Below, piece by piece: positions 2,911-34,900 of a stretch of DNA of 35,526 bases (its first letter is position 1; each line of letters starts with the position of its first letter). This DNA comes from Patescibacteria group bacterium (GTDB lineage: Bacteria; Bacteroidota; Ignavibacteria; Kapaibacteriales; Kapaibacteriaceae). The stretch lies in assembly GCA_044238605.1 (NCBI GenBank), contig JBIICY010000013.1, positions 1 through 35,526 on the forward strand, in the 5' to 3' direction. The notes under the pieces are model-generated. The model was given only the letters and a program-made list of their open reading frames with translations, had not been told where the DNA came from and did not search any database. Both the position numbers and the translations under genes were made by a program.

Positions 2911-2937
2911 GTAGACACGAGCGCAAGAGACCATCTC

Positions 2938-4602
2938 ATGGCAACAACAATTGGTTCGGCAGTAACCCACGATCTAAACTTTGAATCAAATGCCGATGCG
3001 AACAAGCAGACGTTTCGCATGATCGACGGCGTCTCGCAATCGGTTATGCTTGGCGGTGGCAAGAAGTCTATTGAGCGCCACAAGGCCAAGGGCAAGCTCA
3101 CGGCACGCGAGCGCATTGCGTTGCTTGTGGACGAAGACAGTGCGTTTCTCGAGGTCGGACTCCTTACCGCGCACGGCATGTATGAGCAAGAAGGGGGCTG
3201 CCCGTCCGCAGGTGTGGTTACGGGCATTGGCATCATCCACGGACGCGAGTGCATGATCGTAGCAAACGATGCTACGGTAAAGGCGGGCGCATGGTTTCCG
3301 ATGACGGCAAAGAAGAACATGCGCGCGCAAGAGATCGCGATGGAGAATCGGATTCCGATCATCTACCTTGTGGACTCCGCTGGGGTGTTTCTGCCGATGC
3401 AGGATGAGATCTTCCCCGACAAAGAACATTTCGGACGTCAGTTCCGCAACAACGCCATGATGAGCGCTATGGGCATTCCGCAGATTGCGGCCATCATGGG
3501 CCCGTGCGTTGCAGGCGGCGCATACCTGCCCATCATGTCAGACGAAGCAATCATCGTCAACGGCACCGGCAGCGTCTTCCTCGCAGGACCTGCCCTTGTA
3601 GAAGCTGCCATTGGAGAGAAGACAGGCATAGAGCCCCTTGGCGGAGCAACAATGCACAGCACCGTATCGGGCGTGATCGATTACAAGGTTGACTCAGACG
3701 AAGAAGCTCTCTCGACCATTCGCTCTCTCGTTGAGAAGTTCTCGCCTACACTTGGCAAGAAGGATCTCTTCTCGCGCGTAGAACCACGCGAGCCAGCGTT
3801 TGATCAAGAAGAGATCTACGGCATTATGCCATCGGATAGAGCAAAGCCCTACAACACACGTCAGATCATTGCACGCTTGGTCGACGGATCAGAATTCGAC
3901 GAATACAAGGCCGGGTTCGGTCAGACCATCATCTGCGGCTATGCCCGCATCGACGGCTGGAGCGTTGGCATCGTGGCCAACAACCGCGAGATCTCGAAGT
4001 CAGGCAAAGGCGAGATGCAGGTAGGGGGCGTGATCTACTCCGACTCTGCAGATAAAGCAGCACGCTTCATTCTGAACTGCAACCAGCGCGGAATTCCACT
4101 CGTGTTTCTGCAGGACGTAACAGGCTTCATGGTGGGCACACGCGCAGAGCAGGGCGGCATCATCAAAGACGGCGCAAAGCTTGTTAATGCCGTCGCCAAT
4201 TCTGTTGTACCAAAGTTTACGATCATCATCGGCAACTCGTATGGGGCTGGCAACTACGCTATGTGCGGCAAGGCCTACGATCCACGTCTGATCTATGCCT
4301 GGCCAACGGCGCAGATCGCTGTAATGGGCGGCGCGCAGGCAGCAAAGACGTTGTTGACGATTAAGATTGCCACGCTTGAGAAGCAGGGCGAAGTGTTAAC
4401 GCCCGAGAAGCAGGCGGCAATGCTCAAGGATATACAAGCCAAGTACGATGCAACCACAACGCCGGTCTATGCGGCGTCGAAGCTCTGGGTAGACGGCATC
4501 ATTGCTCCAACAGACACGCGCAACGTTATCTCGCGCGGCATTGCCGTGGCATCGCATCAGGGCTCGATCCCCGAGCTCAAGACAGGCGTATTCCAGGTAT
4601 AG
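2938..4602 (+). CDS. acyl-CoA carboxylase carboxyltransferase subunit (methylcrotonyl-/propionyl-CoA carboxylase beta-chain family)
   Basis: In-frame ATG at 2938 inside ORF 2689..4602 gives MATTIGSAVTHDLNFESNADANKQTFRMIDGVSQSV... Hallmark carboxyltransferase blocks are present: KLTARERIALLVDEDSAFLE, GVVTGIGIIHGRECMIVANDATVKAGAW, MGPCVAGGAYLP and GNSYGAGNYAM. Size is ~554 aa. Confidence 0.8.
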   Translation: MATTIGSAVTHDLNFESNADANKQTFRMIDGVSQSVMLGGGKKSIERHKAKGKLTARERIALLVDEDSAFLEVGLLTAHGMYEQEGGCPSAGVVTGIGIIHGRECMIVANDATVKAGAWFPMTAKKNMRAQEIAMENRIPIIYLVDSAGVFLPMQDEIFPDKEHFGRQFRNNAMMSAMGIPQIAAIMGPCVAGGAYLPIMSDEAIIVNGTGSVFLAGPALVEAAIGEKTGIEPLGGATMHSTVSGVIDYKVDSDEEALSTIRSLVEKFSPTLGKKDLFSRVEPREPAFDQEEIYGIMPSDRAKPYNTRQIIARLVDGSEFDEYKAGFGQTIICGYARIDGWSVGIVANNREISKSGKGEMQVGGVIYSDSADKAARFILNCNQRGIPLVFLQDVTGFMVGTRAEQGGIIKDGAKLVNAVANSVVPKFTIIIGNSYGAGNYAMCGKAYDPRLIYAWPTAQIAVMGGAQAAKTLLTIKIATLEKQGEVLTPEKQAAMLKDIQAKYDATTTPVYAASKLWVDGIIAPTDTRNVISRGIAVASHQGSIPELKTGVFQV

Positions 4603-7328: not shown

Positions 7329-7427
7329 TTACGTTTCATGTCGGTGATAACACAGCATCTGCATTGATTCTTTTGTGAAGTAGTTGTACTTCAATTCACG
7401 AAAGGCTTCACTAAATGCAATCCTCAT
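7329..7427 (-). pseudogene. 32-codon remnant of a RelE/ParE-type toxin 5' end (MRIAFSEAFRELKYNYFTKESMQMLCYHRHET*)
   Basis: Lies within repeat copy A. The first ~25 codons are collinear with the start of the 11274..11816(-) ORF (MRIAFSKAFRESMFDYFTQESLQML...). It then diverges and terminates, running antisense into the 3' flank of the upstream gene. Confidence 0.35.
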
Positions 7428-7508
7428 AGAAACAGAATACAGTCGTGAACAGAAAGGTATATCTACGTTCACTGTGTATTGTGACAACCATTACGTCACA
7501 ATCGGGGG
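7354..7508. repeat. copy A of a ~155-bp direct repeat (partner at 11557..11710)
   Basis: Direct comparison with 11557-11710. A 55-bp core is identical (aatacagtcgtgaacagaaaggtatatctacgttcactgtgtattgtgacaacca). The flanks are ~85% identical. An 11-nt cassette differs at almost every base (gttgtacttca here vs atcaaacattg in copy B). Confidence 0.9.
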
Positions 7509-9637: not shown

Positions 9638-11041
9638 ATGAATAATGCGACGAATAACAAGGCGGTACTGTGGCGATTAGCAATACCTGTTATCATCTTG
9701 ATACTGTCTACGATTTGCTTCGAAGCAGGTGTTGTAGTGCAGCACAGACCCGACATTGCATCAGAGGGGCTGTTTATGCACGTACTCTACGCGATGAGTC
9801 TGTTCAAAGTCAATGGCATCAACCTTGGCGTGCCGGTATCTGGTCCAATCTGGGCAATTGATCTTCTCTACGTTATGTATTTCGCTGCTCCTGCCGTTTC
9901 AATCAGCGCAATTCTTGAGGCCGTGTTTCGTGTTGCACGGCTTAAGCTACGTTGGTTTCTACTGCGTGGTGGCCATGCGGTAGTGCTTGGTGCGGGACGT
10001 GCAACGTCGGACCTGCCGGCTATTCTCGATGCTGAAGTTGAGTCAAGGGGCTGGTTTGGACTTGTCCGCAAATCGGTTCCAATTGTTATCGCAGACAAAT
10101 CAGAGGATGCGCTGCTTCGCAATTCAACGAGTATGCTCAAGATGCATCTTGATGCAACCGATCCAGCAATTGTTGACACATTAAACATGCGTCGTGCTAG
10201 GGTAGTCATGCTACTCACCGATGATGATCAGGCGAACATCGACGTGTATTTCCGCTTGCGTGAACAACTATCGTCAGTGCCGGAGGAGAAGCGTCCTGTG
10301 GTCTTCATTCGTGTACGCGACATGGACCTGATCCGTGTGCTGCGTTCATACAATACCTCCCCGAAGACGCGGTTTTTTAACGTCCACATCGAAGGCGTCC
10401 GCTCGCTCTTTGCTCTCGATTCATCGATCACAGCAAGCGAATGGCTTGTGCACGCCCGCGAGACAAACGAAGCCCTGTCAAAGAACTGGGATGCTGTTAC
10501 GCGCATCAAGGACATGCAGCCTCAGCGCATCGTAATGGTTGGGTTTGGACGCTTTGGCCAGCACCTGCTCGCCGAAATGATGTTGAATAATGATGGACAT
10601 ATGACGAAGCACCTTGAGTCGCTGGCAATCATCAGTCCAGACGTCTTTCATGGATGGGCTCACTTTGAGCGTCTACTGCTGTGCAACATCACCAATAGCA
10701 GTGCTCTACCAAACCCTGAACTGCTCTCAGGCACTCATAGCGATGTAGGGCTGCTGCATTCGCTCGCTCAGGAGTCCGCTAACCGCAACACACTCTTTAT
10801 CATTGGCACCGATGATACGCCTGCAAACATTCAAGCAGCATCGGTTCTCCAGCGCTTCTGTGCGGCACACTCATCACAACATCCGTCGCGCTCCACTATC
10901 ATGGTGCGCACAAACATGTTCAGCATGGCACACGAGCGTCTGCTCCATTCAGGTACTTCAGAGAATGTAGACTACGTTCTCCTGCCAACGTATCATATCC
11001 TCGGTACGTACTTCAGTCGTCGTATCAGAGAAGCGCGGTAG
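9638..11041 (+). CDS. MthK-like two-TM ion-channel homologue with tandem RCK/KTN (TrkA-N) domains and a degenerate selectivity filter
   Basis: Outer helix LWRLAIPVIILILSTICF. The pore region is FKVNGINLGVP where K+ channels carry TVGYG. Inner helix IWAIDLLYVMYFAAPAVSISAIL. Two Rossmann GxGxxG motifs follow (HAVVLGAGRATSDL and IVMVGFGRFGQHLL). Confidence 0.55.
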   Translation: MNNATNNKAVLWRLAIPVIILILSTICFEAGVVVQHRPDIASEGLFMHVLYAMSLFKVNGINLGVPVSGPIWAIDLLYVMYFAAPAVSISAILEAVFRVARLKLRWFLLRGGHAVVLGAGRATSDLPAILDAEVESRGWFGLVRKSVPIVIADKSEDALLRNSTSMLKMHLDATDPAIVDTLNMRRARVVMLLTDDDQANIDVYFRLREQLSSVPEEKRPVVFIRVRDMDLIRVLRSYNTSPKTRFFNVHIEGVRSLFALDSSITASEWLVHARETNEALSKNWDAVTRIKDMQPQRIVMVGFGRFGQHLLAEMMLNNDGHMTKHLESLAIISPDVFHGWAHFERLLLCNITNSSALPNPELLSGTHSDVGLLHSLAQESANRNTLFIIGTDDTPANIQAASVLQRFCAAHSSQHPSRSTIMVRTNMFSMAHERLLHSGTSENVDYVLLPTYHILGTYFSRRIREAR

Positions 11042-11105
11042 AGAGCAGCGAGCAGCGAATAGAAAGCAGCGAGCAGCGAGTAGCAAACAGCGAGTAGCGA
11101 GTACC
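11042..11105. repeat. AGCGAGY heptamer satellite (9 units) beginning immediately after stop codon
   Basis: agagcagcgagcagcgaatagaaagcagcgagcagcgagtagcaaacagcgagtagcgagtaccgagt, followed by the hairpin gtttacttcgtaaac. Confidence 0.85.
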
Positions 11106-11112
11106 GAGTGGT

Positions 11113-11298
11113 TTACTTCGTAAACAATGATGCTACGATCTGGCGGATCTCGTCTTGGGGATGCTCTTCGTTCGTTACTTCGAACGTAGTGAGTTGCGAC
11201 TTTCCTTGGCGTACATCCTTCATCTCTTGAAGAACTGCAACGAATCTGTCAAAGAAGTCGTCGGAAGCATCTTCTAGTTGTTCCGTGGGTCGTGCCAT
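11113..11298 (-). CDS. 61-aa acidic protein in the antitoxin position downstream of a RelE/ParE-type toxin; candidate non-canonical antitoxin
   Basis: MARPTEQLEDASDDFFDRFVAVLQEMKDVRQGKSQLTTFEVTNEEHPQDEIRQIVASLFTK. Overlaps the toxin ORF by 25 nt. I see no HTH or RHH motif. The AGCGAGY satellite begins 8 nt after its stop. Confidence 0.4.
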   Translation of the reverse strand: MARPTEQLEDASDDFFDRFVAVLQEMKDVRQGKSQLTTFEVTNEEHPQDEIRQIVASLFTK

Positions 11299-11630
11299 AG
11301 GTCTTCATCCTCTATATCGATTAGTGATAGGTGAATTAGATACGCACGTTGCTGTGGCAATAGATCTGGCTGGTCTCTTTTCCGGTAAGCAAGATACAAC
11401 ACAAGAAGCCGCTTTCTTCGGTCATAAGCGTATAGTATTCGTAGGCCTGATCGTGCACCAGTGTGATGTAGTGCATCAGGTGCGCGAATCTTGCGAATGC
11501 CACCAAGTCCTCGCATAAGTGCGCCAGCCTCTGGCGCATGGACAAGTCGTTCTAGGAGCATCTGTAGCGATTCTTGTGTGAAGTAATCAAACATTGATTC
11601 ACGAAACGCTTTGCTAAATGCAATCCTCAT
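11274..11630 (-). CDS. RelE/ParE-superfamily toxin (HigB2/Gp49-like)
   Basis: C-terminal block GLRILYAYDRRKRLLVLYLAYRKRDQPDLLP fits the RelE/ParE/Gp49 core (YRIlY..d.....v.il...hRk). The longest ORF runs to 11816, but ATGs at 11630 (MRIAFSK...) or 11594 (MFDYFTQ...) give a family-typical 106-118 aa. The 5' end lies in repeat copy B. Confidence 0.55.
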   Translation of the reverse strand: MRIAFSKAFRESMFDYFTQESLQMLLERLVHAPEAGALMRGLGGIRKIRAPDALHHTGARSGLRILYAYDRRKRLLVLYLAYRKRDQPDLLPQQRAYLIHLSLIDIEDEDLWHDPRNN

Positions 11631-11710
11631 GGAAACATAATACAGTCGTGAACAGAAAGGTATATCTACGTTCACTGTGTATTGTGACAACCAAAACGTG
11701 ACAATTGGGG
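11557..11710. repeat. copy B of the ~155-bp direct repeat (partner 7354..7508)
   Basis: See copy A. Read on the minus strand, the core contains TTGTCA-16nt-TAGATA, a sigma70-like -35/-10 pointing into the RelE/ParE-like gene. An imperfect inverted repeat ACAGTcgTGAAC...GTTCACTGT is also present. The two copies bracket 7509-11556. Confidence 0.9.
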
Positions 11711-11854
11711 AGGGCGACTCAGTCCTCGTAATGCTTCTGCTTTCGCAGGATGACCTTCGCAACAACGACGAGTTGCTCGCTATATTTCTATGTGAGGCAT
11801 GATTACAATGAGACAATCAATAGTTTACTAATAGTAAACACACTATATTGCACA

Positions 11855-12166
11855 GTGTTTAACATCATTGCAAGAAAAACCATCCTTGTATACGCGCGGA
11901 GGTATCCCAAGGCATCGAATGCCTTGTTCGCGTGGTACTATGAGATTGTCAATGCAGACTACAAGAACTGTAACCAGTTAAAGGCAGACCATCCATCTGC
12001 GAGTATTGTAGGAGATGACCGCGTGGTGTTCAACATTATGGGTAACAAATACAGACTCGTTGTGCGTATTGTGTTTGCCTACCGAGCAGTGCAAATCAAA
12101 TGGTTCGGCACCCACAAGGAATACAATGAGATCGATGTTCAAACTATCGACCCAAGGAGAAACTAG
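11855..12166 (+). CDS. higB: HigB-family type II toxin (mRNA interferase)
   Basis: KADHPSASIVGDDRVVFNIMGNKYRLVVRIVFAYRAVQIKWFGTHKEYNEIDVQTI matches the HigB signature (..NRVVFNIkGNkYRLIv.i.y....vyIrfiGTHaEYDkID). A GTG at 11855 gives the family-typical ~104 aa. The ORF-track ATG at 11750 would add 35 non-conserved residues. Confidence 0.75.
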   Translation: MFNIIARKTILVYARRYPKASNALFAWYYEIVNADYKNCNQLKADHPSASIVGDDRVVFNIMGNKYRLVVRIVFAYRAVQIKWFGTHKEYNEIDVQTIDPRRN

Positions 12167-12168
12167 TC

Positions 12169-12525
12169 ATGGAGCTACGAGTCATCAAGTCCGCTAGGCA
12201 GTACAACGAGTATCTCTCGTGGGTAGACGAACAATTCGACAAGAACGTAAAGCCAACATCGCCCGCAGGACGCAAACTCGATGTGGCTCTGGCATTGATC
12301 AAGCTGTATGAAGATGAGCACTATGCCATCCCGCACCCCGATCCAATCGAGGCTATCAAGGCTCGAATGCAGGAAATGGGGCTCCGCAATAAGGACCTTG
12401 TTGGCATCATCGGTAGTAAGAGTTATATCTCACTCGTGCTTAACGGGCACAAACCACTTACTCTTGATCTGGCAAAGGCATTCCATAAGGTACTGGGCAT
12501 ACCAGCAGACGTGCTGCTGAAGTGA
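12169..12525 (+). CDS. higA: HigA-family antitoxin (C-terminal HTH)
   Basis: Starts 2 nt after the higB stop. PHPDPIEAIKARMQEMGLRNKDLVGIIGSKSYISLVLNGHKPLTLDLAKAFHKVLGIPADVLL matches the HigA pattern (PDPIEAIKFRMEQ.G..QKDLA...G.KS.VSEILNKKR.LTL.MIRKL...L.IP.EVL) from memory. Confidence 0.8.
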   Translation: MELRVIKSARQYNEYLSWVDEQFDKNVKPTSPAGRKLDVALALIKLYEDEHYAIPHPDPIEAIKARMQEMGLRNKDLVGIIGSKSYISLVLNGHKPLTLDLAKAFHKVLGIPADVLLK

Positions 12526-12631
12526 AGTTCGTTCGCGAGTGTGCCGAGATACCAGCTACTCGCTGTTCGCTACTCGCGGCGTTTTGACCGGTGTTACACG
12601 AATTTTTACGAGATTTACCAAGGTACGTGTC

Positions 12632-12943
12632 ATGAATGGACCATTTACGATGCTCGATCACAACGTGCAAGAAAGATTCAATCTGGAAGAGGAGGGTTCT
12701 CTGATGAATGAGCTCCTATCAGATGATATCGATCGACAGCGCATTGCTGCTGCGTTTGTGCGTGCTTCATACGATGCTCGAGCTCGAGCTCGAGAGCATG
12801 GTACCAAGCTTGTGTACATGATTGATGGCAAGGTACAGCTTCTAGATCCTGATTCTCCACTGCTACTGGATCTGTCACCATTGGTGCCAATAGTTAAACG
12901 GCTTTTTCCGCTGCCGCCTGAAATGGAGCCTAAAGGGTTCTAG
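12632..12943 (+). CDS. small hypothetical protein, paralogue of 13931..14221, with internally duplicated C-terminal motif
   Basis: MNGPFTMLDHNVQERFNLEEEGSLMNELLSDDIDRQRIAAAFVRASYDARARAREHGTKLVYMIDGKVQLLDPDSP... It shares the DIDRQR.AAA.VRA....R..AR..GT.LVY..DG.V....PDSP core with the 96-aa protein downstream. The ATG at 12632 is in frame within ORF 12539..12943. Confidence 0.5.
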   Translation: MNGPFTMLDHNVQERFNLEEEGSLMNELLSDDIDRQRIAAAFVRASYDARARAREHGTKLVYMIDGKVQLLDPDSPLLLDLSPLVPIVKRLFPLPPEMEPKGF

Positions 12944-14272: not shown

Positions 14273-14312
14273 CCACTCGGCACTCGCTACTCGGCACTCG
14301 CTACTCGGTACT
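14273..14312. repeat. heptamer satellite ACTCGSY x5.5 (reverse-complement orientation of AGCGAGY)
   Basis: ccactcggcactcgctactcggcactcgctactcggtactc, ending at the stop codon of the GT2 gene. Confidence 0.8.
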
Positions 14313-15410
14313 CTAAAACGTCTGCCCCTTCCATTGCACTCGCTTGCGCATTGCCAGAATTGGCAGGATAAGCTCAAGAAGCAACAGGATGATGAGCGAG
14401 GGGGCGATTGCTGGTATGGAAGACCAGCGGCGAAGACGCATAACTGAGAGGCCGATCAGCACGCCGTCTCCAAGTGCACGAAGAGCGAGATAGGTGAGTG
14501 TCCAACTTGCTGACTGCGTCACGATGGAGAGCACAAGGGCCGCCCAGTAGGTAACACTGGTAATCACAAAGATGGTGGCGCGCCATCCAAGCTGTGTGCC
14601 GCCCCTTACCCAGCGCTGCTTCTGATGAAGGTACTCCATCAGCGTTGTGCAGGGAAGGGTCTCAACGGCGCTGTCGGCACTGCAGATATAGGATACGCTA
14701 TGTCCAGCTCGCACCATTGCCTGCAGGAGTGCAAGGTCTTCGGTGATGCTAAAACTTACTACGTTATATCCTCCTAGTTCGCGAAATGCAGCGGCATCGA
14801 TGGCAAGATTGTTGCCAAAGCATCCGATGGGGATGCCGTTTGTGAGCGATCCCTGTGCCATGCTGTGCGTGTAGAGCCACTCTACGTCCTGCAAGACTCC
14901 AAACGCTGAGGAATGCTCAATGGTGGTAAATCCGCAAACCATCTTGACGCGCTCGTTGTTGAACGGGGCAAGCATGGTGTGCACCCAGTCGGGGTCTACT
15001 ACGCAATCTGCATCGGTAAAAAGAAGTACATCTCCCGATGCACGGTCAACGCCTGCTTGAAGCGCTCCCGGCTTGCCGCGCAGATTCTCTCGTGCTTCCG
15101 ACTCCGTTCGGTGCACAGTCTTGATCACCGACCACGATGCAGCGGCCAGTTCAATAATGCTGCCGGTTGCATCTGTGCTGCGATCGTTCACAATGATGAT
15201 CTCCAGCAGGTGCTCGGGATAGGTTATCGTGCGCAGAGATGCAATACACCTGTGCAGGGTAGAGGCTTCGTTACGGGCTGGGATGATGATCGAGACGCGC
15301 CGCTGTGGAACGTTGTTCTGCTTGCGGATGGATGCCCGCAGCTGTCCGCTTAGAAAGTACACCAAGCGAAGGCTGTAGATGACGGCCGAGATGGTCAGGA
15401 CAAGTTCCAT
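14313..15410 (-). CDS. family 2 glycosyltransferase (membrane, processive type)
   Basis: The N-terminal GT-A domain carries the DxD region (VSIIIPARNEASTLHRCIASL...IIVNDRSTDATG...LLFTDADCVVDPDW) and QKQRWVRG (the QxxRW motif). Multiple C-terminal TM helices follow. Confidence 0.8.
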   Translation of the reverse strand: MELVLTISAVIYSLRLVYFLSGQLRASIRKQNNVPQRRVSIIIPARNEASTLHRCIASLRTITYPEHLLEIIIVNDRSTDATGSIIELAAASWSVIKTVHRTESEARENLRGKPGALQAGVDRASGDVLLFTDADCVVDPDWVHTMLAPFNNERVKMVCGFTTIEHSSAFGVLQDVEWLYTHSMAQGSLTNGIPIGCFGNNLAIDAAAFRELGGYNVVSFSITEDLALLQAMVRAGHSVSYICSADSAVETLPCTTLMEYLHQKQRWVRGGTQLGWRATIFVITSVTYWAALVLSIVTQSASWTLTYLALRALGDGVLIGLSVMRLRRWSSIPAIAPSLIILLLLELILPILAMRKRVQWKGQTF

Positions 15411-18065: not shown

Positions 18066-18525
18066 GTCACTCCTCGTCATGATGTGCCTAGCGCTATCGT
18101 GGACAGCCCTCGCAGCCCAGGACGACGACGAACCACCTATGCCGCGCGAGCGCATGCAGCAACGGATCGAAGATGTCCGCAAAATGAAGCTCATCGACAT
18201 CCTCGAACTGCAAGACTCGCAGGTAGAGAAGTTCTTCCAGTTGTACAACTCACTGCATGGCACAGTTCTGCAGCGCAAACGCGATATGGACGAAAAGGCA
18301 GAGACACTTAAGCGTATGTCCCGCGACGCCTCCTCCAGCCTCCAACCCCAGATCGATGCCCTTCAGTCTGCAACCCATGCATTCCACGAGGCCATCGAAC
18401 AACGCAACGCGAAGATCAAGGACGTCCTCTCCCCACAGCAGCACGCCAGATACTTAGTCTTCGAAGCAAAGTTCCCAGAAGAACTCGCGAAGATGCTGGC
18501 GAAGAGAGCGAAGAAGAGAGAGTAA
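18049..18525 (+). CDS. small periplasmic helical protein (Spy/CpxP-like LTxxQ-type motifs)
   Basis: ATG at 18049 gives the signal peptide MIMASKSLLVMMCLALSWTALAAQ. Charged helical repeats carry LQDSQ and LSPQQ motifs, and the C-terminus is basic. It is the third gene of the sigma/anti-sigma operon and overlaps the previous gene by ~14 nt. Confidence 0.4.
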   Translation: MIMASKSLLVMMCLALSWTALAAQDDDEPPMPRERMQQRIEDVRKMKLIDILELQDSQVEKFFQLYNSLHGTVLQRKRDMDEKAETLKRMSRDASSSLQPQIDALQSATHAFHEAIEQRNAKIKDVLSPQQHARYLVFEAKFPEELAKMLAKRAKKRE

Positions 18526-18608
18526 GATAAAGCAGCGAGCAGCGAGTAGCGAACAGCGAGCAGCGAACAATTAGACGTACTCGCTGCTCGCTGTTCGCTG
18601 CTCGCTAC
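18526..18608. terminator. 83-bp perfect palindrome built from AGCGAGY heptamers filling the gap between convergent stop codons (bidirectional terminator candidate)
   Basis: ataaagcagcgagcagcgagtagcgaacagcgagcagcgaacaattagacgtactcgctgctcgctgttcgctgctcgctactc. The left arm is AGCGAGY units, the right arm is their reverse complement, and the loop is aattagacgta. It abuts the stop at 18525 on the left and the stop at 18609 on the right. Confidence 0.7.
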
Positions 18609-19850
18609 TCATATCAGCATTCCCGCTACACACGCGGTTAGCAGATTTGCTAGGGCCCCAATGCACATGGCTTTGAAGCCAAAGCGGGCTACTTCGGCGC
18701 GGCGTTCTGGGGCCATCATGCCGTAGCCGCCGATTTGGATGCCGATGGACATGATGTTGGCAAAGCCGCACAGGGCAATAGTAGCAAGGCGCACAGTTCG
18801 GTCTGAAAGAGCCCCTTGTCCAACAAGGGTTGCAAGCTTGTCGTAGGCGATGAACTCTGTGAGTGAGATCTTGGTGCCTAAAAGAGATGCGAATGTGTGG
18901 GCCTCGTTGGATGGTATGCCAACGAGCCACGAGAACGGCAGAAAGATGTAGCCAAGGATCTGCTCGATGGATGTGCCAATACCCATCATCAGGAGTGCGT
19001 CCATGAAGGCAACGATGGCCTTAAAGGCAATGAGTACTACGATTACGTTTACGGCAAGCTTTACGCCATCAAATGCACCGCGCGCTATGGCATCGAGCAC
19101 GTTGCCGGCAGGCAATACGGGATCGAGGTTGGTAACCTCTTCACGTGTAAGTGCATCTTCTGGTCTGTCTGGCTCTGCGATCTTGGCAAGGGCCAGCGCC
19201 GCGGGTGCGGCAAGGATACTGGCGATCATCAGGTCGGTGGCCTGAATGCCCCTTGCCACGTAGACACCCATGGTAGAGCCGGCAATGGTTGCAAAGCCAC
19301 CTACCATCATGGCAAAGAGCTCAGAAGGGGCTATGCGGGGTATGTAGTGTCTCACGAGCAGCGGAGACTCTGTCTGACCCAAAAAGATCTCGCCAACAGC
19401 GTTGATGGACTCAATGGGAGATGTCTTCATTGTGCGTTCAAGAATGCGCGCTGCGATCTTCACGAACCGCTGCATGATGCCGTAATGATACAGCACGGCC
19501 ATGCATGCAGAGAAGAAGACAATAACAGAAGTTATCGTGAGGGCAAACTGAAAGCCCACTGCGGCAACGCCTTTTGCGCGTGGAAGATCGCCAAAGAGAA
19601 ATGCTGCACCCTCATTGGCAAAACCCAGAAACCATGTGATGCCATCGCCCATCCACTGGAAGAAGGCAATGCCCGGTGGAAACACCATTACAACAACAGC
19701 CAGTAGAAGCTGCAGGACAATGCCCCAGAGAACGGTTCTCCACGGGATGGCGCTTCGAGAAGATGACCAGATCCAAGCGATGGCAAGGATCACGAGTATA
19801 CCAAGGGCCGACTGAAGCTGGGGCATGGACGTTCCGCTATCGTTCTGCAT
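18609..19850 (-). CDS. nupC: NupC/CNT-family concentrative nucleoside transporter
   Basis: A multi-TM protein with the conserved CNT blocks GFANEGAAFLFG, FQFALTITSVIVFFSACMAVLYHYGIMQ, KTSPIESINAVGEIFLGQTESPLLVRHYI and ELFAMMVGGFATIAGS. An alternative start at 19826 (MPQLQ...) would remove the 14-nt overlap with dnaE. Confidence 0.8.
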   Translation of the reverse strand: MQNDSGTSMPQLQSALGILVILAIAWIWSSSRSAIPWRTVLWGIVLQLLLAVVVMVFPPGIAFFQWMGDGITWFLGFANEGAAFLFGDLPRAKGVAAVGFQFALTITSVIVFFSACMAVLYHYGIMQRFVKIAARILERTMKTSPIESINAVGEIFLGQTESPLLVRHYIPRIAPSELFAMMVGGFATIAGSTMGVYVARGIQATDLMIASILAAPAALALAKIAEPDRPEDALTREEVTNLDPVLPAGNVLDAIARGAFDGVKLAVNVIVVLIAFKAIVAFMDALLMMGIGTSIEQILGYIFLPFSWLVGIPSNEAHTFASLLGTKISLTEFIAYDKLATLVGQGALSDRTVRLATIALCGFANIMSIGIQIGGYGMMAPERRAEVARFGFKAMCIGALANLLTACVAGMLI

Positions 19851-22800: not shown

Positions 22801-23289
22801 TATCGCATTGCGCCGTGCCGTTTCTTCGTCACCGGCAAGCATTGGCGCATTGATGGGTCCGGCTAGACATGCCGACGTCGCGATGAGCCCCTCATGGTGT
22901 TCACGCAACAGGTCCATGTCGATACGGGGCTTGTAGTAAAACCCATGCGTATGGCCAATGGAGGTAAGCTTTACAAGGTTCTTGTATCCCGTTTCGTTCT
23001 TTGCCAGCAGCACCAGATGGTAGTAGTTCCGCTTCTTGCCAGCATCAACAACCTTCTCGCGGTCGGTGTGCTTCTTTACCGCGATGTAGACCTCGCAACC
23101 AATGATGGGCTTAATGCCCGACTTCTTGGCCTTTTTGTAAAACTCAAAGCAGCCGAACATCACGCCGTGATCCGTGATCGCCAGCGCAGATTGTCCGTCG
23201 GCCTTGGCCGCATCGATCAACGTCTGCGGACTCGCCGCAGCATCGAGCAATGAGAAGTGTGTGTGGTTGTGAAGGTGGACGAAGCTCAT
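19837..23289 (-). CDS. dnaE: DNA polymerase III alpha subunit
   Basis: 1150 aa. N-terminal PHP domain MSFVHLHNHTHFSLLDAAASPQTLIDAAKADGQSALAITDHGVMFG. The polymerase core is GPGRGSAAGSLIAYALRITDIDPLKFDLLFERFLNPDRVSMPDIDVDF. The OB-fold region lies C-terminally. Confidence 0.95.
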   Translation of the reverse strand: MSFVHLHNHTHFSLLDAAASPQTLIDAAKADGQSALAITDHGVMFGCFEFYKKAKKSGIKPIIGCEVYIAVKKHTDREKVVDAGKKRNYYHLVLLAKNETGYKNLVKLTSIGHTHGFYYKPRIDMDLLREHHEGLIATSACLAGPINAPMLAGDEETARRNAITLKEIFGDDFYIELQDHGLPEDKHVLEFAPRLAKELGIKIVVSNDTHYVKKDDAVAHNVLLHIQKDASFDRSQFDVKKDLRYRVPEMYMKTQKQMKDLFKAFPEGIESTVEIAEKVDLKIPTDLQLPQFPIPPESDATTLEDYLEELTMKGLEERYPVMTSEVLDRASFELQVIKRMGYAGYFLIVADFIRAARQMGVRVGPGRGSAAGSLIAYALRITDIDPLKFDLLFERFLNPDRVSMPDIDVDFSDDKRSRVIEYVKEKYGADSVAQIITFGTLSSRAVLKDVGRVLGIELSAITQITDKIPVIMGKVHTIAEAMELPELRWIKTTDDHRIKDLISYAQVLEGFARNSSLHAAGVVIAPGPISDFVPVYKTPNTEAATQYNMKDLEEAGLLKMDFLGLRTLSIIDQTLEQIKRNHGIDVDVDTIDFDDPKTYELFSRGYTQAVFQFESDPMQKALRELKPTVLEDLIAMNALYRPGPMDNIPDFIDRKHGRKPVEYLHPLMEPILNKTYGVIVYQEQVMQLVQTLAGFTLAQSDVMRRAMGKKDEKSMAEQRVKFIEGAKSNANIEEALASEIFDLIQKFASYGFNKSHSAAYSYLAFQTAWLKTHYPAEFLAANMTAELNDQAKIVALIDEAKRVNITVLPPDINRSMATFVAEGSSIYFGLAGIKGVGITAVESIVEARKDSPFTSIFDFAARVDKKVVNKRVLEALVCSGAFDSLRNGHRAQLFSVIDTAIHYASQVQDDALSAMGGGLFGDAEIERPKEPSLPVLEPWPERDRLRKEKEVLSFYVSGHPLQEYAMAVQSFSTINLARIDADMNGKGARICGLISDVRTRLDKRENTIAFVKVEQYQGSVEVIFWSDKYKQFAELIKPDTVVVVIGKCEVSGESIKITADDVLTLEQAEKKLVRGYVVCIRPDEHTDEQLKSLKQRCNTSDAQDQLSFVVMHPEGKRLYTTMSKIKYSQETTKFLCSTFGDANVLVDAER

Positions 23290-23382
23290 AGGGACAAGGG
23301 ACTAGGGACAAGGGACTAGGGACAAGGGACTAGGGACAAGGGACTAGGGACAAGGGACTAGGGACTAGGTACGGGGGTACGG
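23290..23382. repeat. 14-mer tandem satellite (GGGACAAGGGACTA x6) directly abutting the dnaE start codon
   Basis: agggacaagggactagggacaagggactagggacaagggacta... followed by gggactaggtacgggggtacgg. It occupies the entire space between the upstream small-gene stop (23383) and the dnaE ATG (23289). Confidence 0.9.
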
Positions 23383-23661
23383 TTATTTGAGGCGTTTGAT
23401 TTGTTCTGAAAGGGTTTGTTCGATAGCCCCCTTAGCAGCAGAGCCAAAGAACGAGAGTTCGATATCGATGTCGACGAAGTTGTCGCGAAGCGTAATCGTG
23501 CCGTGTCCGAGTTTGCCGGAGGCGTGGAGCACGTTGCCCTTCCATTCGTGGGTGGAGACCAGCATGGACAGTTCTGGACGCGTGAGCACCTTGCTATCGA
23601 TTAGCAGGCGCATTTCCATGGCTGTCTTTGAGGTCTCGATGGTTTGTTTAATGTTGGCCAT
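23383..23661 (-). CDS. small conserved protein, possibly polyhydroxyalkanoate-system family (TIGR02610-like)
   Basis: 92 aa. MANIKQTIETSKTAMEMRLLID...HEWKGNVLHASGKLGHGTITLRDNFVDIDIELSFFGSAAKGAIEQTL loosely fits the W.G..L.F.R.Gv.G.I.V....V.V...LG......K..IE pattern of that family. The assignment is tentative. Confidence 0.3.
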   Translation of the reverse strand: MANIKQTIETSKTAMEMRLLIDSKVLTRPELSMLVSTHEWKGNVLHASGKLGHGTITLRDNFVDIDIELSFFGSAAKGAIEQTLSEQIKRLK

Positions 23662-28940: not shown

Positions 28941-29648
28941 TACACAAGGGTACGTGGTGCCCAATGCGCACGTAAGGTTCCTCGGCACTTCGTGCCTCGG
29001 AATGACGCCCGCGCAGATTGTTTTTAATTGGAGATCAGCGCGCCTACGGCGCGCTGATCCAATAACATTTAAAGCTGCACCAGCGTCATTCCGAGCGAAG
29101 CGAGGAACCTAGGGACAGGGCACAGGGGTACGTGGTGCCCAATGCGCACGTAAGGTTCCTCGGCACTTCGTGCCTCGGAATGACGCCCGCGCAGATTGTT
29201 GTTGATTGGAGAGCAGCGCGCCTGCGGCGCGCTGCTCCATTAACATCTTAAGCTGCACGAGCGTCATTCCGAGCGAAGCGAGGAACCTTGGGACAGGGCA
29301 CAAGGTATTTGGTCGCCCAATGTGCACGTAAGGTTCCTCGGCACTTCGTGCCTCGGAATGACGTCCGCGCAGATTGTTTTTAATTGGAGATCAGCGCGCC
29401 TACGGCGCGCTGCTTCATTAACATTTAAAGCTGCACGAGCGTCATTCCGAGCGAAGCGAGGAACCTAGGGACAGGGCACAAGGTATTTGGTCGCCCAATG
29501 CGCACGTGAGGTTCCTCGGCACTTCGTGCCTCGGAATGACGCCCGCGCAGATTGTTTTTAACTGGAGAGCAGCGCGCCTACGGCGCGCTGCTCCATTAAC
29601 ATTTAAAGCTGCACGAGCGTCATTCCGAGCGAAGCGAGGAACCTAGCA
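28941..29648 (+). repeat. tandem array of four ~178-bp palindromic structured elements with TIR-like ends
   Basis: Unit starts at 28951, 29129, 29306 and 29484. The left end GGTTCCTCGGCACTTCGTGCCTCGGAATGACGCC and the right end GCGTCATTCCGAGCGAAGCGAGGAACC are imperfect inverted repeats. The central hairpin stems are GATCAGCGCGCC-tac-GGCGCGCTGATC (unit 1) and GAGCAGCGCGCC-tgc/tac-GGCGCGCTGCTC (units 2 and 4). Unit 3 is a hybrid. Confidence 0.9.
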
Positions 29649-29692
29649 GGTGCAATATCTTCACGTATTAGGCTTTCGTTTAAATTGCCCGT

Positions 29693-30420: not shown

Positions 30421-30500
30421 CCGTAATCCGTACCCCGTAACCAGTAACCAGTAACCAGTAACCAGTAACCAGTACCCCGTCCCTAGTCCCTAGTCCCTAA
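30421..30500 (+). repeat. heptamer satellites (CGTAAYC, CAGTAAC x5, GTCCCTA x3) immediately upstream of the S41 peptidase RBS/start
   Basis: ccgtaatccgtaccccgtaaccagtaaccagtaaccagtaaccagtaaccagtaccccgtccctagtccctagtccctaac, then ctcccGGAGGttctcATG (30516). Confidence 0.9.
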
Positions 30501-30515: not shown

Positions 30516-32939
30516 ATGCATCCGCGCATCCTTGCCATCGCGATTGTTTCATGGGTGCTATGCGCGCCCCTTGCGCTCCAGGCGGACACAGCATCGGCGA
30601 TGCGGTATATCATGGAGCACTACGTGCACCCGTTGCCGCCTGGCAGCGAGAAGCTTCCGTATACGAAGTTTGATAAGCTGCTGGATAAGTGGACGTGGAT
30701 CATTTCCAACGAAGAGTGGTCAACGATGGCCAATAGCCTCCAGGGCAAACACACTGGTAAGGTTGGTGTTATGCTGCTGAAGCTTCCATACGGAGAGCGT
30801 GTTACGCATGTAACAGCGGGTTCTCCGGGATACTACACAGGCCTTATGATCGGCGATGTTGTAGAGTCATGGGGCGATGTAAGCGTAGTCTATCCCGACA
30901 CGACCGCAACGGCTGTGCGCAGGTATAGTCCTGCCGGACAATACATCATGCTGGATGTGCGCCGCGGAGATTCCTGCATGCGCATTCCAACATTCCGAGA
31001 AACATTCACAACAGATGCCGTCGATGTTGCCGTGCGCGGCAGAACGCTGGCCGTGCGCCTGGAGCAGTTCACAAGTGATATGCACAAGAACTTTACGATG
31101 AAGTGCTTTGGCATTGATCGCAGCAGCATTGATACGGTGATCTTTGATGTGCGAGACAACGGAGGCGGCTATGTGGACGCAGCACTGGCAATGATCGGGG
31201 AGTTTGTGAAGGAGGGAGACACCATGCTCTCGATGCATTTCCGCAACCGGACAGAATACAGCATTGCTGAGAGCACAGGCGATTGGTACGATCCGCGTCG
31301 TACGATCATCATCCTGCAGGACAGCGGTTCTGCATCAGCAAGCGAGCTTTTTGCCGGCGGTATGAGAGAGCGTGCACGCGCCATCATTGTGGGTCAGCGC
31401 AGCTACGGCAAGGGGCGAGTATTGAACCGCATTCCAGCTAGGGTGTTTGGGTCATTCAATGACCCCAAGATTGGCGGACTCAGCATCACGATTGCGCTCT
31501 ACAAAGCAGCCGGTAAGATCGATGTAGACAGCATTGGTATACCTGCATCAGTGGCAATTCCAGAGCAAGCAGCTGCATGGCTGCCTCCAACAGTTGATAT
31601 AATCGCTCTGCGCAACCGCACGCGCTATCCATCTGAGGAGCTCATCGATAGCATCAACCGTCTTGGCAGGGGAAATGCTGCGGGCCTTGTCTGGGGAGAT
31701 CGTATCTCGGCCCGAGTAGCAATAGATGATATCGCTTCCATGCGCGAGATGCTTCCAGTGCCTGTATGGCGCTGCCTTGCAGATCATGGAGCTGTGCACA
31801 CACAGTTTAGCCGTCAGGATGAAGAGCAGATCCGTCGGGCCATTTACGACGGCATCATCGGCAGCGTGCCAGACAGCGTGCTCCGCATCGAACCTGTCGA
31901 GAAGATGCTCGAGCACCTGCAGATCAACATCCGCATCCGCAGCAAGGAACAGGTGTTTGCTGAGCACACACTTGCCCCCAAGCTTATGAACACGCTCGGC
32001 CTGCGTTTGCGTCAGCACCAGAATGCCATCATTGTAGACCACGTTGCTCGCGGGTCAGCAGCATACAATGCAGGCGTCTGCGTAGGGGACAACATTGTAA
32101 GCGTAGAGAACTTTGCAACAGGCGGGGGCATCGACCGTGCAATAGCGCTGCTTGTGAACAGCAAGCCCCATGACGGAATCCTCGGCGTAGAAGTCCGCCG
32201 CGGCAACCGTCAGTTCACACTCCCCATCAGCCAAAGCTCAGCATCCGCATCACTTGTTACCTCAACGATCGACGATGACGTTGCCTACATCGCCCTGCAC
32301 AGCTTCTCGGTAGAAGCCGGCGCCCAGGCCCGCAAGAACATCATCGACGCCGACCGCCAGGGGGCTAGCAGCATCGTTATTGACTTGCGCGGCATTGCGG
32401 GTAACAACGCCCGCAGCGTAATCCACCTGCTGGACCTCTTTGGCAAAGGCAAACCGCTTGGTGCATCAGCCCCCTACATCCTTGTAGACCAGTTCACAGC
32501 AGGCGCGCCCGAGTACTTTGCAAGCCGCATGCAGCGAGAGCACGGCGCCGTGATCGTTGGCACAGCAACAGCTGGACGCATGGAGCGCGAGCTTCGCATG
32601 GGCATCAGCAACGAATCAGACATCATCATCACACGTCAGCTCGATACCCTCAGCAACGCCACATCCATCTCACCCGACATCCAGCTTACATGGCCTGAGC
32701 GCTCACTGGATGCCATCCGCACAGCCGCATCACACTTCAGAGACGTTGTCAACATGCGCAAGGACGCAACGGATATCACAGACAACGAGCTCGACAACAT
32801 CTACGCACGCATCCCCAACGCACAAAGCATCGACCGGGGCGTCCTCTCCGAAGCAATCTTCGGCAGCGCCGCCAAGTATTACCAGATAGCGCCTATCGTT
32901 CGCCGCGTGGTAAACAACAAACGATGGACGAGGAGATAG
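30516..32939 (+). CDS. S41-family peptidase (two S41 catalytic-domain copies plus PDZ-like region), secreted
   Basis: Signal peptide MHPRILAIAIVSWVLCAPLALQA. S41 blocks VIFDVRDNGGGYVDAALAMIGEF and IVIDLRGIAGNNARSVIHLLDLFG, each followed by Ser-rich SxSASE motifs (SGSASASELFA). The PDZ-like segment is HVTAGSPGYYTGLMIGDVVESWGDVSV. Confidence 0.7.
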   Translation: MHPRILAIAIVSWVLCAPLALQADTASAMRYIMEHYVHPLPPGSEKLPYTKFDKLLDKWTWIISNEEWSTMANSLQGKHTGKVGVMLLKLPYGERVTHVTAGSPGYYTGLMIGDVVESWGDVSVVYPDTTATAVRRYSPAGQYIMLDVRRGDSCMRIPTFRETFTTDAVDVAVRGRTLAVRLEQFTSDMHKNFTMKCFGIDRSSIDTVIFDVRDNGGGYVDAALAMIGEFVKEGDTMLSMHFRNRTEYSIAESTGDWYDPRRTIIILQDSGSASASELFAGGMRERARAIIVGQRSYGKGRVLNRIPARVFGSFNDPKIGGLSITIALYKAAGKIDVDSIGIPASVAIPEQAAAWLPPTVDIIALRNRTRYPSEELIDSINRLGRGNAAGLVWGDRISARVAIDDIASMREMLPVPVWRCLADHGAVHTQFSRQDEEQIRRAIYDGIIGSVPDSVLRIEPVEKMLEHLQINIRIRSKEQVFAEHTLAPKLMNTLGLRLRQHQNAIIVDHVARGSAAYNAGVCVGDNIVSVENFATGGGIDRAIALLVNSKPHDGILGVEVRRGNRQFTLPISQSSASASLVTSTIDDDVAYIALHSFSVEAGAQARKNIIDADRQGASSIVIDLRGIAGNNARSVIHLLDLFGKGKPLGASAPYILVDQFTAGAPEYFASRMQREHGAVIVGTATAGRMERELRMGISNESDIIITRQLDTLSNATSISPDIQLTWPERSLDAIRTAASHFRDVVNMRKDATDITDNELDNIYARIPNAQSIDRGVLSEAIFGSAAKYYQIAPIVRRVVNNKRWTRR

Positions 32940-33008
32940 CAGCGAGTAGCGAACTATTAGCAGCGAGCAGCGAGCAGCTAGCAGCGAACAGCGAGTAGCG
33001 AACAGCGA
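32940..33008. repeat. AGCGAGY heptamer satellite beginning immediately after the stop codon
   Basis: agcagcgagtagcgaactattagcagcgagcagcgagcagctagcagcgaacagcgagtagcgaacagcgagtagc. Confidence 0.85.
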
Positions 33009-33009
33009 G

Positions 33010-33180
33010 TAGCAGAGCTCCCTCGGCACTATGTGCCTCGGGATGACGCCCACACGTTGCTTTTTAGGTAGGCGCAGCGCGCCTGCGGCGCGCTGCGCCA
33101 TGTTATAAACCGCCTCTAAGCGGCGTCATTCCGAGCGAAGCGAGGAACCTCGGCGTCAATCCGAGCGAAGCGAGGAACCA
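33010..33180 (+). repeat. solo copy of the TIR-bounded palindromic element (family of the 28941-29648 array), with duplicated right end
   Basis: Left end ctccctcggcactatgtgcctcgggatgacgccc. Central 13-bp perfect stem GGCGCAGCGCGCC-tgc-GGCGCGCTGCGCC. The right end ggcgtcattccgagcgaagcgaggaacc occurs twice (33125-33180). Confidence 0.85.
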
Positions 33181-33208
33181 TGTGTAACAATTATCCTGGA
33201 GTTATGTC

Positions 33209-34678
33209 ATGAACCAGCACATCATTCATCTCGTCAGCACGATTATCATTTGCGTGTCTTTCGGACTCGCTGCTAGCTGCTCGCTGTTCGCTGCTCCGTC
33301 TGCGGGACTCGCTGCTCGCTGTTCGCTGTTCGCTGCTCCGTCTGCGGGACTCGCTACTCGCTGCTCGCTGTTCGCTGCTCCGTCTCCGGGACTCGCTGCT
33401 CGCTGTTCGCTGCTCGCTGCTTCTTCTGATGATTCCGAGCTCCGCAAGATCATCAAGGATCGGTCTCTCAAGCAGCTTACGCCTGATGCGCTGAATAACA
33501 TCAACGAGGATAACCTCAAGCAGAATCTTGATCGGTACTCAACGGTGTATGATCAGGCAGTTGGCAGGTATCGTAGGGCGGAGATCGATGGGAACGAGCC
33601 ATTTGGCATGGACGCCGACAAGTACCCAATGTACTATCCCGTTACGATCTCGGAGATCTTGGTTAGCGGCACGGCGTACATCGATGGCCTTGCCGTGGGT
33701 GATGAGATCATCGCGGTTAATGGCGATGCTGTAACGAGCTCATGGGACATGTTCGAGCATCAGGCTATGAACACAGAGCGTAAGCTGGACGTCACGATCA
33801 AGCGGGCAAAGGTGGAGTATACGGTAACGCTCTATCCGCGCGGACGCCGCTTCCGCAGCGTTGTGGGGATGATGAGCAACGGCATTGGCTACGTCAACGT
33901 GGGTGGCTTTACATCTGGCAGTGCGGAGGCAATGCGCACGCTGTTTACAGCATTCAAAGAGCAGGGGGCTACGCGCTACATTATTGATCTACGTGGCACA
34001 CCTGGCGGACGCATGGACGAGTGTCTGGAGATGCTCGAATTGTTTTCGCACAAGGGAGATACACTCGTCATCATCGACAATGCAGCTGGCGAGGAGCGGG
34101 TCTTTCTCTCGCATACTACAGGCCCCTTCTATGGAGAAAGCGTTGATATTCTTGTAGACAACAAGAGCGTCTCTGCAAGCGAGATGTTTGCCCTGGTTGC
34201 TCAGGACAACTCCTTTGGACGCATCATCGGCACAGTCACAGAGGGTAAGGGGCGCTACAACATTATGGAAGAACTCTCGGACGGACGCGTAGTGCAGCTT
34301 ACAACTGAGCGCTACTACTCACGCAAGCATCGGTCTATCGACTATGAATACGGCTCGGACGGCGTGCGGCCAGATGCCGAACATAGGTGGACATCACGCC
34401 GATACCTCTGGATCCAGCGTCAGGGCAACGCTCTTGGCATACCACCTAGAGACATGCGCGCACTTCGGACGGTCTACCCCGAGCCCAACGCCGCCGCACT
34501 TGACTCACTGCTTGGCGTCTATCGCATAGACTCCACACCAGACAACCGCAACTACTACGCAGTTGTGGTATGGGGCAGACTCGGCATGGCTGTAGAAGCA
34601 TTCAACTACTATGCCGCAAAGACAGAACAACCAGTACCTCCTTCACCGTCACGGTCAAGAAAGGGCAGGCGATTGTAA
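33209..34678 (+). CDS. S41-family peptidase with N-terminal 3x 14-aa peptide repeat encoded by the AGCGAGY/GCTCGCT satellite
   Basis: Signal peptide MNQHIIHLVSTIIICVSFGLAA. Residues ~22-70 read CSLFAAPSAGLAARCSLFAAPSAGLATRCSLFAAPSPGLAARCSLLAASS, encoded by gctcgctgttcgctgctccgtctgcgggactcgct x3. S41 blocks YIIDLRGTPGGRMDECLEMLELF and NKSVSASEMFALV. Confidence 0.7.
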   Translation: MNQHIIHLVSTIIICVSFGLAASCSLFAAPSAGLAARCSLFAAPSAGLATRCSLFAAPSPGLAARCSLLAASSDDSELRKIIKDRSLKQLTPDALNNINEDNLKQNLDRYSTVYDQAVGRYRRAEIDGNEPFGMDADKYPMYYPVTISEILVSGTAYIDGLAVGDEIIAVNGDAVTSSWDMFEHQAMNTERKLDVTIKRAKVEYTVTLYPRGRRFRSVVGMMSNGIGYVNVGGFTSGSAEAMRTLFTAFKEQGATRYIIDLRGTPGGRMDECLEMLELFSHKGDTLVIIDNAAGEERVFLSHTTGPFYGESVDILVDNKSVSASEMFALVAQDNSFGRIIGTVTEGKGRYNIMEELSDGRVVQLTTERYYSRKHRSIDYEYGSDGVRPDAEHRWTSRRYLWIQRQGNALGIPPRDMRALRTVYPEPNAAALDSLLGVYRIDSTPDNRNYYAVVVWGRLGMAVEAFNYYAAKTEQPVPPSPSRSRKGRRL

Positions 34679-34681
34679 GCA

Positions 34682-34900
34682 CAGCTTCCTCGGCACTACG
34701 TGCCTCGGAAAGAAATCCTCCCGCATCAGTTTCCTCGGCACTTCGTGCCTCGGAAAGACGCCCACACGTTGTTTTTTTGTTGGGCGCAGCGCACCTTCGG
34801 TGCGCAGCGCCATGTAGTTATCTCCTGCAGCGGCGTCATTCCGAGCGAAGCGAGGAACCCTGAGCGTCATTCCGAGCGCAGTCTGGAATCTGGCGTCACC
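34682..34900 (+). repeat. solo copy of the TIR-bounded palindromic element with duplicated left and right ends
   Basis: Two left ends (cttcctcggcactacgtgcctcggaaag / tttcctcggcacttcgtgcctcggaaagacgccc). Central stem GGCGCAGCGCACC-ttc-GGTGCGCAGCGCC, 12 of 13 bp with a covarying A-T pair. Two right ends (ggcgtcattccgagcgaagcgaggaacc / gagcgtcattccgagcgcagtctggaatc). Confidence 0.85.

Follow-up and report, generated by a model that had tools for sequence, protein, structure and literature searches.

A likely HigB2-type toxin-antitoxin module whose 61-residue antitoxin corresponds to the neutralising segment of HigA2

The closest described relative of the gene pair reported here, which lies on the minus strand of a 35,526-nucleotide stretch of contig JBIICY010000013.1 (assembly GCA_044238605.1, GTDB order Kapaibacteriales; hereafter the window), is the toxin-antitoxin (TA) system HigB2-HigA2 of Vibrio cholerae (PDB 5JAA, 8A0X). 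HigB2 belongs to the Pfam family PF06296, in which the toxin gene precedes the antitoxin gene (PMC11980606), and its active site consists of R51, R64, Y82 and K84 (Hadzi et al., PMC5416850). HigA2 begins with an intrinsically disordered segment (residues 1-36). Once this is bound to the toxin, residues 3-22 adopt a helix and residues 28-37 a strand, and a peptide of residues 3-22 is sufficient to neutralise HigB2 in vitro (Hadzi et al., PMC5416850). Residues 37-104 form a helix-turn-helix (HTH) domain of the XRE type, which serves DNA binding and dimerisation, and on its own the disordered segment shows no operator binding (PMC11006873).

In the window, two TA modules with the toxin gene in first position stand back to back on opposite strands, with their start codons 224 bp apart (spacer 11631-11854). 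A first-pass annotation, made by a model from the letters of the sequence, had described two divergent toxin-first type II modules at this place, and the coordinates of the open reading frames (ORFs) and the family matches agree with that description. The minus-strand pair comprises a 118-aa toxin (11274..11630) and an acidic 61-aa partner (11113..11298). It is likely to be a type II TA module of the V. cholerae HigBA2 lineage, in which the antitoxin has been cut down to the N-terminal neutralising segment of HigA2.

The minus-strand toxin and its short partner

The toxin ORF runs from an ATG at 11630 to 11274, and the motif GLRILYAYDRRKRLLVLYLAYRKRD occupies residues 62-86. Relatives in the protein databases are 57-73% identical. 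Taken alone, the window toxin has no match at E<=1 in Pfam or NCBIfam, including PF05016, PF05973 and PF06296, and PADLOC likewise yielded nothing of use for it. The profile search with PF05016 and PF05973 that the first-pass annotation had proposed as a check on its RelE/ParE/Gp49-like assignment therefore fails if taken literally, and the RelE/ParE label can be given only through a profile of the family or by comparing folds. Both of these place the toxin within the RelE/ParE superfamily. A profile of the toxin family, compared with the PDB, matches only V. cholerae HigB-2 chains (E 3e-13 to 2e-12, positions 6-102). The AlphaFold2 (AF2) model has the order strand-helix-helix-strand-strand-strand-helix (pLDDT 67.7, pTM 0.62). 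A Foldseek search of this model against the PDB places VcHigB2 at all of ranks 1-11 (E 3e-7 to 4e-5, TM 0.55-0.69), followed from rank 12 on by RelE structures with HP0892 and PfiT. Two of nine toxin relatives match PF06296 at E 0.0035, and one matches PF05016 at E 6.9e-4, all below threshold.

The active site is conserved as well. In the alignment of hidden Markov models (HMMs), R51, R64, Y82 and K84 of VcHigB2 correspond to R49, R64, Y82 and K84 of the window toxin, and these four residues are invariant in nine members of the toxin family, including relatives of 45-46% identity. Judged by profile, fold and catalytic residues, the minus-strand toxin is a divergent RelE of the HigB2 type, predicted to be a catalytically competent, ribosome-dependent mRNA endonuclease, with cleavage of mRNA on the ribosome as its most likely activity.

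The module is under-annotated in public records. Gene calls often miss or split its toxin: JGI records hold 42-aa fragments, and in two contigs that carry the same locus (L021/L022) a 67-aa gene is called where the 118-aa ORF is intact.

The partner ORF overlaps the toxin ORF by exactly 25 nt (11274-11298), and its product has a net charge of about -6. No HTH or ribbon-helix-helix (RHH) family match was found for it in Pfam, NCBIfam or PADLOC. The ORF map, the family searches and the AF2 model are thus in agreement with the earlier description of an overlapping, acidic 61-aa protein that has neither fold. Structure prediction of the protein, proposed at the same time, gave two helices only (14-30 and 49-60) without a globular core (pLDDT 62.9). 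Two isolated helices without a core are expected of a segment that folds on binding.

Profile comparisons with the PDB point to a single protein. With a six-member profile of the partner family, only HigA-2 scores below E 0.001 (residues 3-47, E 4.4e-4); with 14 members, HigA-2 is matched over residues 2-35 at E 6.3e-6 and nothing else scores below E 10. The probability given by hhalign for the partner family against HigA2 is 94.8%. The partner aligns across the helix and the strand of HigA2, and in the alignment from the six-member profile its PQDEIRQI is paired with SPDEIVSI, where the globular domain of HigA2 begins. The partner ends a few residues past this point, which corresponds to about HigA2 residue 55, and what it keeps of the HTH domain is a remnant of its first helix. 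In the AF2 model a single short helix comes after the strand region. Only about 71 bp of heptamer repeats lie between the stop codon of the partner and that of the neighbouring gene, which leaves no space for a lost HTH domain. By homology, the partner is thus the part of a standard HTH antitoxin that neutralises the toxin, here encoded alone and without a DNA-binding or dimerisation domain.

The short form of the partner is shared by its relatives. In a word-based search of 5.8 billion proteins, these are 59-65 aa long, the exceptions being two variants of 78 and 93 aa that look corrupted. When 1.84 billion cluster representatives were searched exhaustively with HMMER, about ten clusters of 61-67 aa came up, and no HTH-bearing relative was found in either search. 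A few long proteins from the exhaustive search were set aside, as they look like spurious repeat matches. Identity among the relatives drops to 16-40%, with G32, L36, L58 and the hydrophobic helix face kept. Every partner relative examined adjoins the 3' end of a HigB2-like toxin gene, with an overlap of 10-25 nt or, in one locus (L007), a 21-nt gap.

Nine more distinct loci or locus groups carry the toxin-then-partner unit. The toxin is 57% identical to that of the window in L001-L004 with L026/L027 (partner of 65 aa, 25-nt overlap), in L005/L006 (65 aa, junction as in L001, with the toxin stop codon lost in L005) and in L025, where a partner homologue is present. Similar values were obtained for L015/L016 (57-58%; 61 aa, 25-nt overlap) and L017/L018 (58%; 62 aa, 25-nt overlap). 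More distant toxins are those of L008 and L009 (50-51%; 63 aa, 10-nt overlap), L007 (46%; 65 aa), L011/L012 (42%; 67 aa, 19-nt overlap) and L013/L014 (42%; 64 aa, 25-nt overlap). The named carriers are metagenome-assembled genomes of Kapaibacterium, Melioribacter and Ignavibacteria (Ignavibacteriota/Kapabacteria), and the window probably belongs to the same group. The module is rare: the genome scan returned four loci, the metagenome scan five and the viral scan none. Judged by its distribution, the short partner has been stably inherited and is no recent truncation. The first-pass annotation had held that its idea of a new antitoxin fold would fail if the 61-aa protein proved to be a truncated standard HTH antitoxin. 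It does appear to be the front part of such an antitoxin; a fresh truncation it is not, since its relatives are 59-67 aa long.

No conserved third gene or HTH gene accompanies the module, and the flanking genes differ in every locus. WYL/WCX regulator genes lie near it only in L015 (3824-4795) and L016 (2760-3689 and 3955-4926). Genes for Mrr, HNH and the type I restriction-modification protein HsdM are found in L001 (1-1270 and 3812-4714). These neighbours suggest a defence-island context for the L015/L016 and L001 modules, though not for that of the window. A contig near-identical to the window carries a type IX secretion system (T9SS) Por_Secre_tail gene.

Control of the module and the facing higBA operon

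Upstream of the toxin gene lies a module-specific element (11631..11702, minus strand), composed of a GTCACG box (11702-11697) and a leader hairpin (stem GTGAACG 11675-11669 / TGTTCAC 11654-11648) which ends 17 nt ahead of the toxin ATG. In every module locus the box lies 65-95 nt ahead of the start codon of the toxin, and a decayed second copy in the window (copy A, described below) has GTGACG instead. In most loci, (T/G)GCAC stands 17 nt past GTCA. A stem of 6-9 bp with its 5' arm 27-31 nt past the box is present in nine of nine loci, against 15% of background positions. Wherever the pattern GTCACG-N14-18-GCAC is present it lies upstream of the toxin, and its only other matches are on the minus strand, in L015/L016. 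The element was located at 2929-3000 in both L001 and L005, 2936-3000 in L007, 358-423 in L008, 2935-3000 in L009, 593-654 in L011, 2097-2168 in L015 and 757-827 in L017.

Six stem sequences were recorded, which differ by lineage: GTGAACG/TGTTCAC, GAATGG/CCATTC, CCGATGT/ACATCGG, GAACAGAAG/CTTCTGTTC, TGTGTC/GACACA and TGCAGA/TCTGCA. The loops, that is, the spacing of the arms, range from 4 to 14 nt across the loci. Since the spacing varies and the stem covaries, an RNA leader hairpin is favoured over a protein operator, and the element is probably a promoter with a putative 5' leader hairpin. A search of Rfam with positions 10900-12700 of the window gave no match, and in a scan for sigma-70 promoters and terminators neither a promoter in the spacer nor any terminator came up. 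The element was also considered as an N-terminal extension of the toxin, a reading which was rejected, as a start codon in that frame is absent from L001.

Taken together with what is known of VcHigA2, these features allow a mechanism to be proposed. The 118-aa protein would act as a ribosome-dependent mRNA endonuclease, as its homology and conserved active site imply. The 61-aa protein would bind it through residues ~13-41, forming a helix and an additional strand as VcHigA2 does. With a partner that has no DNA-binding or dimerisation domain, the complex would not repress its own promoter, and classical antitoxin-mediated autorepression is probably absent from the minus-strand module. More speculatively, the stoichiometry could be governed by translational coupling across the 25-nt overlap and expression set by the promoter and leader element.

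Several points weigh against this reading. No curated Pfam or NCBIfam model recognises the window toxin, and both AF2 models are only moderately confident. The link between the partner and HigA2 consists of about 30 aligned residues with moderate statistics. The partner also has a conserved helix at its C-terminus (49-60, ending in LF), which could serve oligomerisation or an unexpected function. Finally, an inverted repeat ahead of a TA operon also resembles an operator, and the lack of autoregulation is something we infer.

The same stem-loop invites another explanation, according to which it is a 5' leader that sets the mRNA stability or the translation of the TA transcript, possibly through the mRNase toxin itself. 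The stem-loop is conserved, covaries and stands at a fixed distance from the GTCACG box. We regard this explanation as rather unlikely. If it were true, the type II TA module at this locus would regulate itself post-transcriptionally and not through an operator.

The facing plus-strand pair is of a different kind. Its first gene encodes a HigB toxin of the E. coli type, 103 aa long with a GTG start (11855..12166), which matches PF09907 at E 7.6e-27 (93.8 bits, cutoff 27) and resembles E. coli/Shigella HigB structures in the PDB (E about 6e-7). The GTG start is favoured because query residue 3 pairs with chain residue 2 in the alignment with the PDB HigB. The HigA antitoxin gene (12169..12525) begins two bases past the end of HigB and encodes 118 aa with a C-terminal HTH_3 domain at residues 63-116 (E 3.6e-5; 24.2 bits, cutoff 23), similar to E. 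coli HigA structures (E 1.7e-4). The clear HigB (GTG start 11855) and HigA recognised on the plus strand at first reading are thus borne out by PF09907, HTH_3 and PDB matches alike. In PADLOC, HigB is found as PD-Lambda-2_A (E 4.4e-31) and HigA as PD-Lambda-2_B (E 5.3e-36), the latter match covering no more than positions 1-119 of the 402 in the profile. Downstream, a SecB-like third gene as in PD-Lambda-2 or toxin-antitoxin-chaperone (TAC) systems was not seen, and an 84-aa ORF past HigA (12689-12943) has no Pfam match. A perfect palindrome, GTTTAC-N5-GTAAAC (11823..11839), lies 16 nt upstream of the HigB start. It is the single match of this pattern in the window, where 0.01 would be expected by chance, and the sole strong palindrome of the spacer, more than 115 nt from the conserved upstream element of the minus-strand module. 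It is plausible as a candidate HigA operator for higBA itself. The facing pair is an independent, ordinary higBA module of the E. coli type.

It had been proposed on first reading that the minus-strand toxin may be regulated in trans by HigA. In its full form, this explanation has the facing HigA control the HTH-less module or neutralise its toxin, with the four genes acting as one unit. The two operons do share the 224-bp spacer, and the back-to-back arrangement is kept in contigs L021-L023. A precedent also exists in PaaR2 with PaaA2-ParE2, where an antitoxin without a DNA-binding domain is accompanied by a separate regulator (PMC8630535). However, the module DNA of L021-L023 is essentially identical to that of the window, down to a 100% identical toxin, and comes from the same species, so that this synteny carries no independent weight. 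In eight other distinct modules, whose toxins are 42-58% identical to that of the window, HigBA is absent from the available flanks, which were compared over 1.5-3 kb as far as each contig extends. Moreover, the palindrome adjoins the HigB start and has no second copy near the minus-strand promoter, and the HigB2-like module brings its own conserved upstream element wherever it is found. As a general mechanism, control by a facing HigA is not supported, since in the flanks covered a HigBA neighbour occurs only in the near-identical contigs of the same species, and for the window we consider it unlikely, though local cross-talk over the shared spacer may occur.

Repeat copies, signs of decay and repeat arrays

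Part of the minus-strand module exists twice in the window. Repeat copy B (11557..11710, minus strand) comprises the promoter and leader and the first 24-25 toxin codons, and is 87% identical to 7354-7507. It takes in 80 bp of the 224-bp spacer, in keeping with the earlier observation that the two modules share a control region of ~220 bp which holds this copy. By alignment with copy B, repeat copy A (7354..7507, minus strand) contains the leader and the opening 25 codons of a paralogous toxin gene (MRIAFSEAFRELKYNYFTKESMQML), which is then cut short by a premature stop. Copy A is, as its sequence indicates, the stump of a second, decayed HigB2-like module. The two copies form direct repeats around a 4.2-kb segment with Band_7 and TrkA_N genes. 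In L021/L022 the partner gene abuts an FAD-oxidase gene, whereas the window has an extra ~4.2 kb with TrkA_N, Band_7 and copy A. No alignment was obtained between the sequence downstream of copy A and the L021 junction.

Elsewhere, the toxin gene has decayed beside an intact partner. In L019/L020 (172-524), a 1-nt deletion causes a frameshift after about codon 26. The toxin ORF of L005 (3001-3474), having lost its stop codon, reads on to 157 aa.

These cases and copy A could be taken to mean that the minus-strand pair is a dying pseudogene pair and the 61-aa ORF a decaying leftover of a full-length HigA2-type gene. This is very unlikely. The 59-67 aa form is kept in about ten clusters defined at 50% identity, down to 16-40% identity, with no change at G32, L36 or L58 and a conserved hydrophobic face on the helix. 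The toxin retains all its catalytic residues, and neither of the two protein searches brought up an HTH-carrying intermediate. Equally improbable is the novel antitoxin fold, outside the known classes, that the first-pass annotation had suggested for the 61-aa protein: although the partner has no match in Pfam, NCBIfam or PADLOC and its database relatives are labelled only as hypothetical proteins, bar one evidently spurious PurS label, its family profile finds HigA-2 alone in the whole PDB and exactly over the neutralising segment, which argues against a new fold, as do the HigB2 homology of the cognate toxin and an AF2 model of isolated helices.

Short repeats are common in the window. Tandem heptamer arrays of AGCGAGC/AGCGAGT/AGCGAAC, and others of the CGTCATTGGTACTT and GGGACTA/GGGACAA types, occupy many intergenic regions in both orientations. 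They lie at 11040-11116, 12550-12582, 14273-14313, 18506-18610, 32913-33036 and 33256-33423, and also at 272-411, 23275-23386 and 30441-30499. Similar arrays flank the modules in L001, L005, L007 and L011. The inverted arrays at 11040-11116 and 12550-12582 were considered as the ends of a mobile cassette, but this was rejected, as arrays of the same kind occupy many further intergenic regions of the window. The heptamer arrays are a genome-wide feature and not TA cassette ends. A reading of them as cyanobacterial STRR repeats was dropped in view of the named carriers of the module and of the T9SS gene in the near-identical contig. At positions 28959-29670, a 178-nt unit is present in four tandem copies (84-100% identity), and related pieces lie at 33016-33182 and 34683-34893. 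Each unit contains GC-rich sub-repeats of 36-38 nt, which recur at two other intergenic sites.

Comparison with known systems

The two modules of the window have different counterparts. The plus-strand pair is of the same kind as HigB-HigA of E. coli K-12 (PF09907 and HTH_3; PDB 5IFG, 6KML) and as PD-Lambda-2 A and B, to which the minus-strand pair shows no sequence kinship.

The minus-strand pair is instead comparable to V. cholerae HigB2-HigA2. The toxin-first order is common to this system and to all the related loci described here. The window toxin shares with VcHigB2 the RelE-like toxin fold with its C-terminal helix and the R/R/Y/K active site. It differs in that its family has a conserved acidic tail, and from PF06296 in that it falls below the gathering threshold. 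VcHigA2 starts with a helix and strand segment, to which the partner is homologous, with a helix predicted at 14-30. In contrast to VcHigA2, the partner has a 12-residue N-terminal extension and is without the HTH-XRE domain (HigA2 37-104). As this domain is missing, we would expect no HigB2-HigA2-HigA2-HigB2 tetramer and no binding to an operator.

A second likeness is found in paaR2-paaA2-parE2 of E. coli O157:H7, which combines a small antitoxin lacking a DNA-binding domain with a toxin of the RelE/ParE superfamily (PMC8630535). In that operon, however, the antitoxin gene comes first, the toxin is of the ParE type and not an mRNase, and a dedicated regulator, paaR2, is included. There is no sequence relationship between paaA2 and the partner of the window. 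Antitoxins without a DNA-binding domain are already known from PaaA2 (PMC8630535), and the module is moderately, not highly, surprising. Such modules are likely missed by TA surveys that use curated models, because Pfam and NCBIfam miss both proteins and gene callers split or miss the toxin.

If the likely reading is correct, the module resembles a natural counterpart of the 20-residue HigA2 peptide, in which an antitoxin reduced to its neutralising segment is inherited in that form. It would offer a test case for how balance may be reached in a type II TA system without antitoxin autorepression or conditional cooperativity, with the leader hairpin as a possible substitute.

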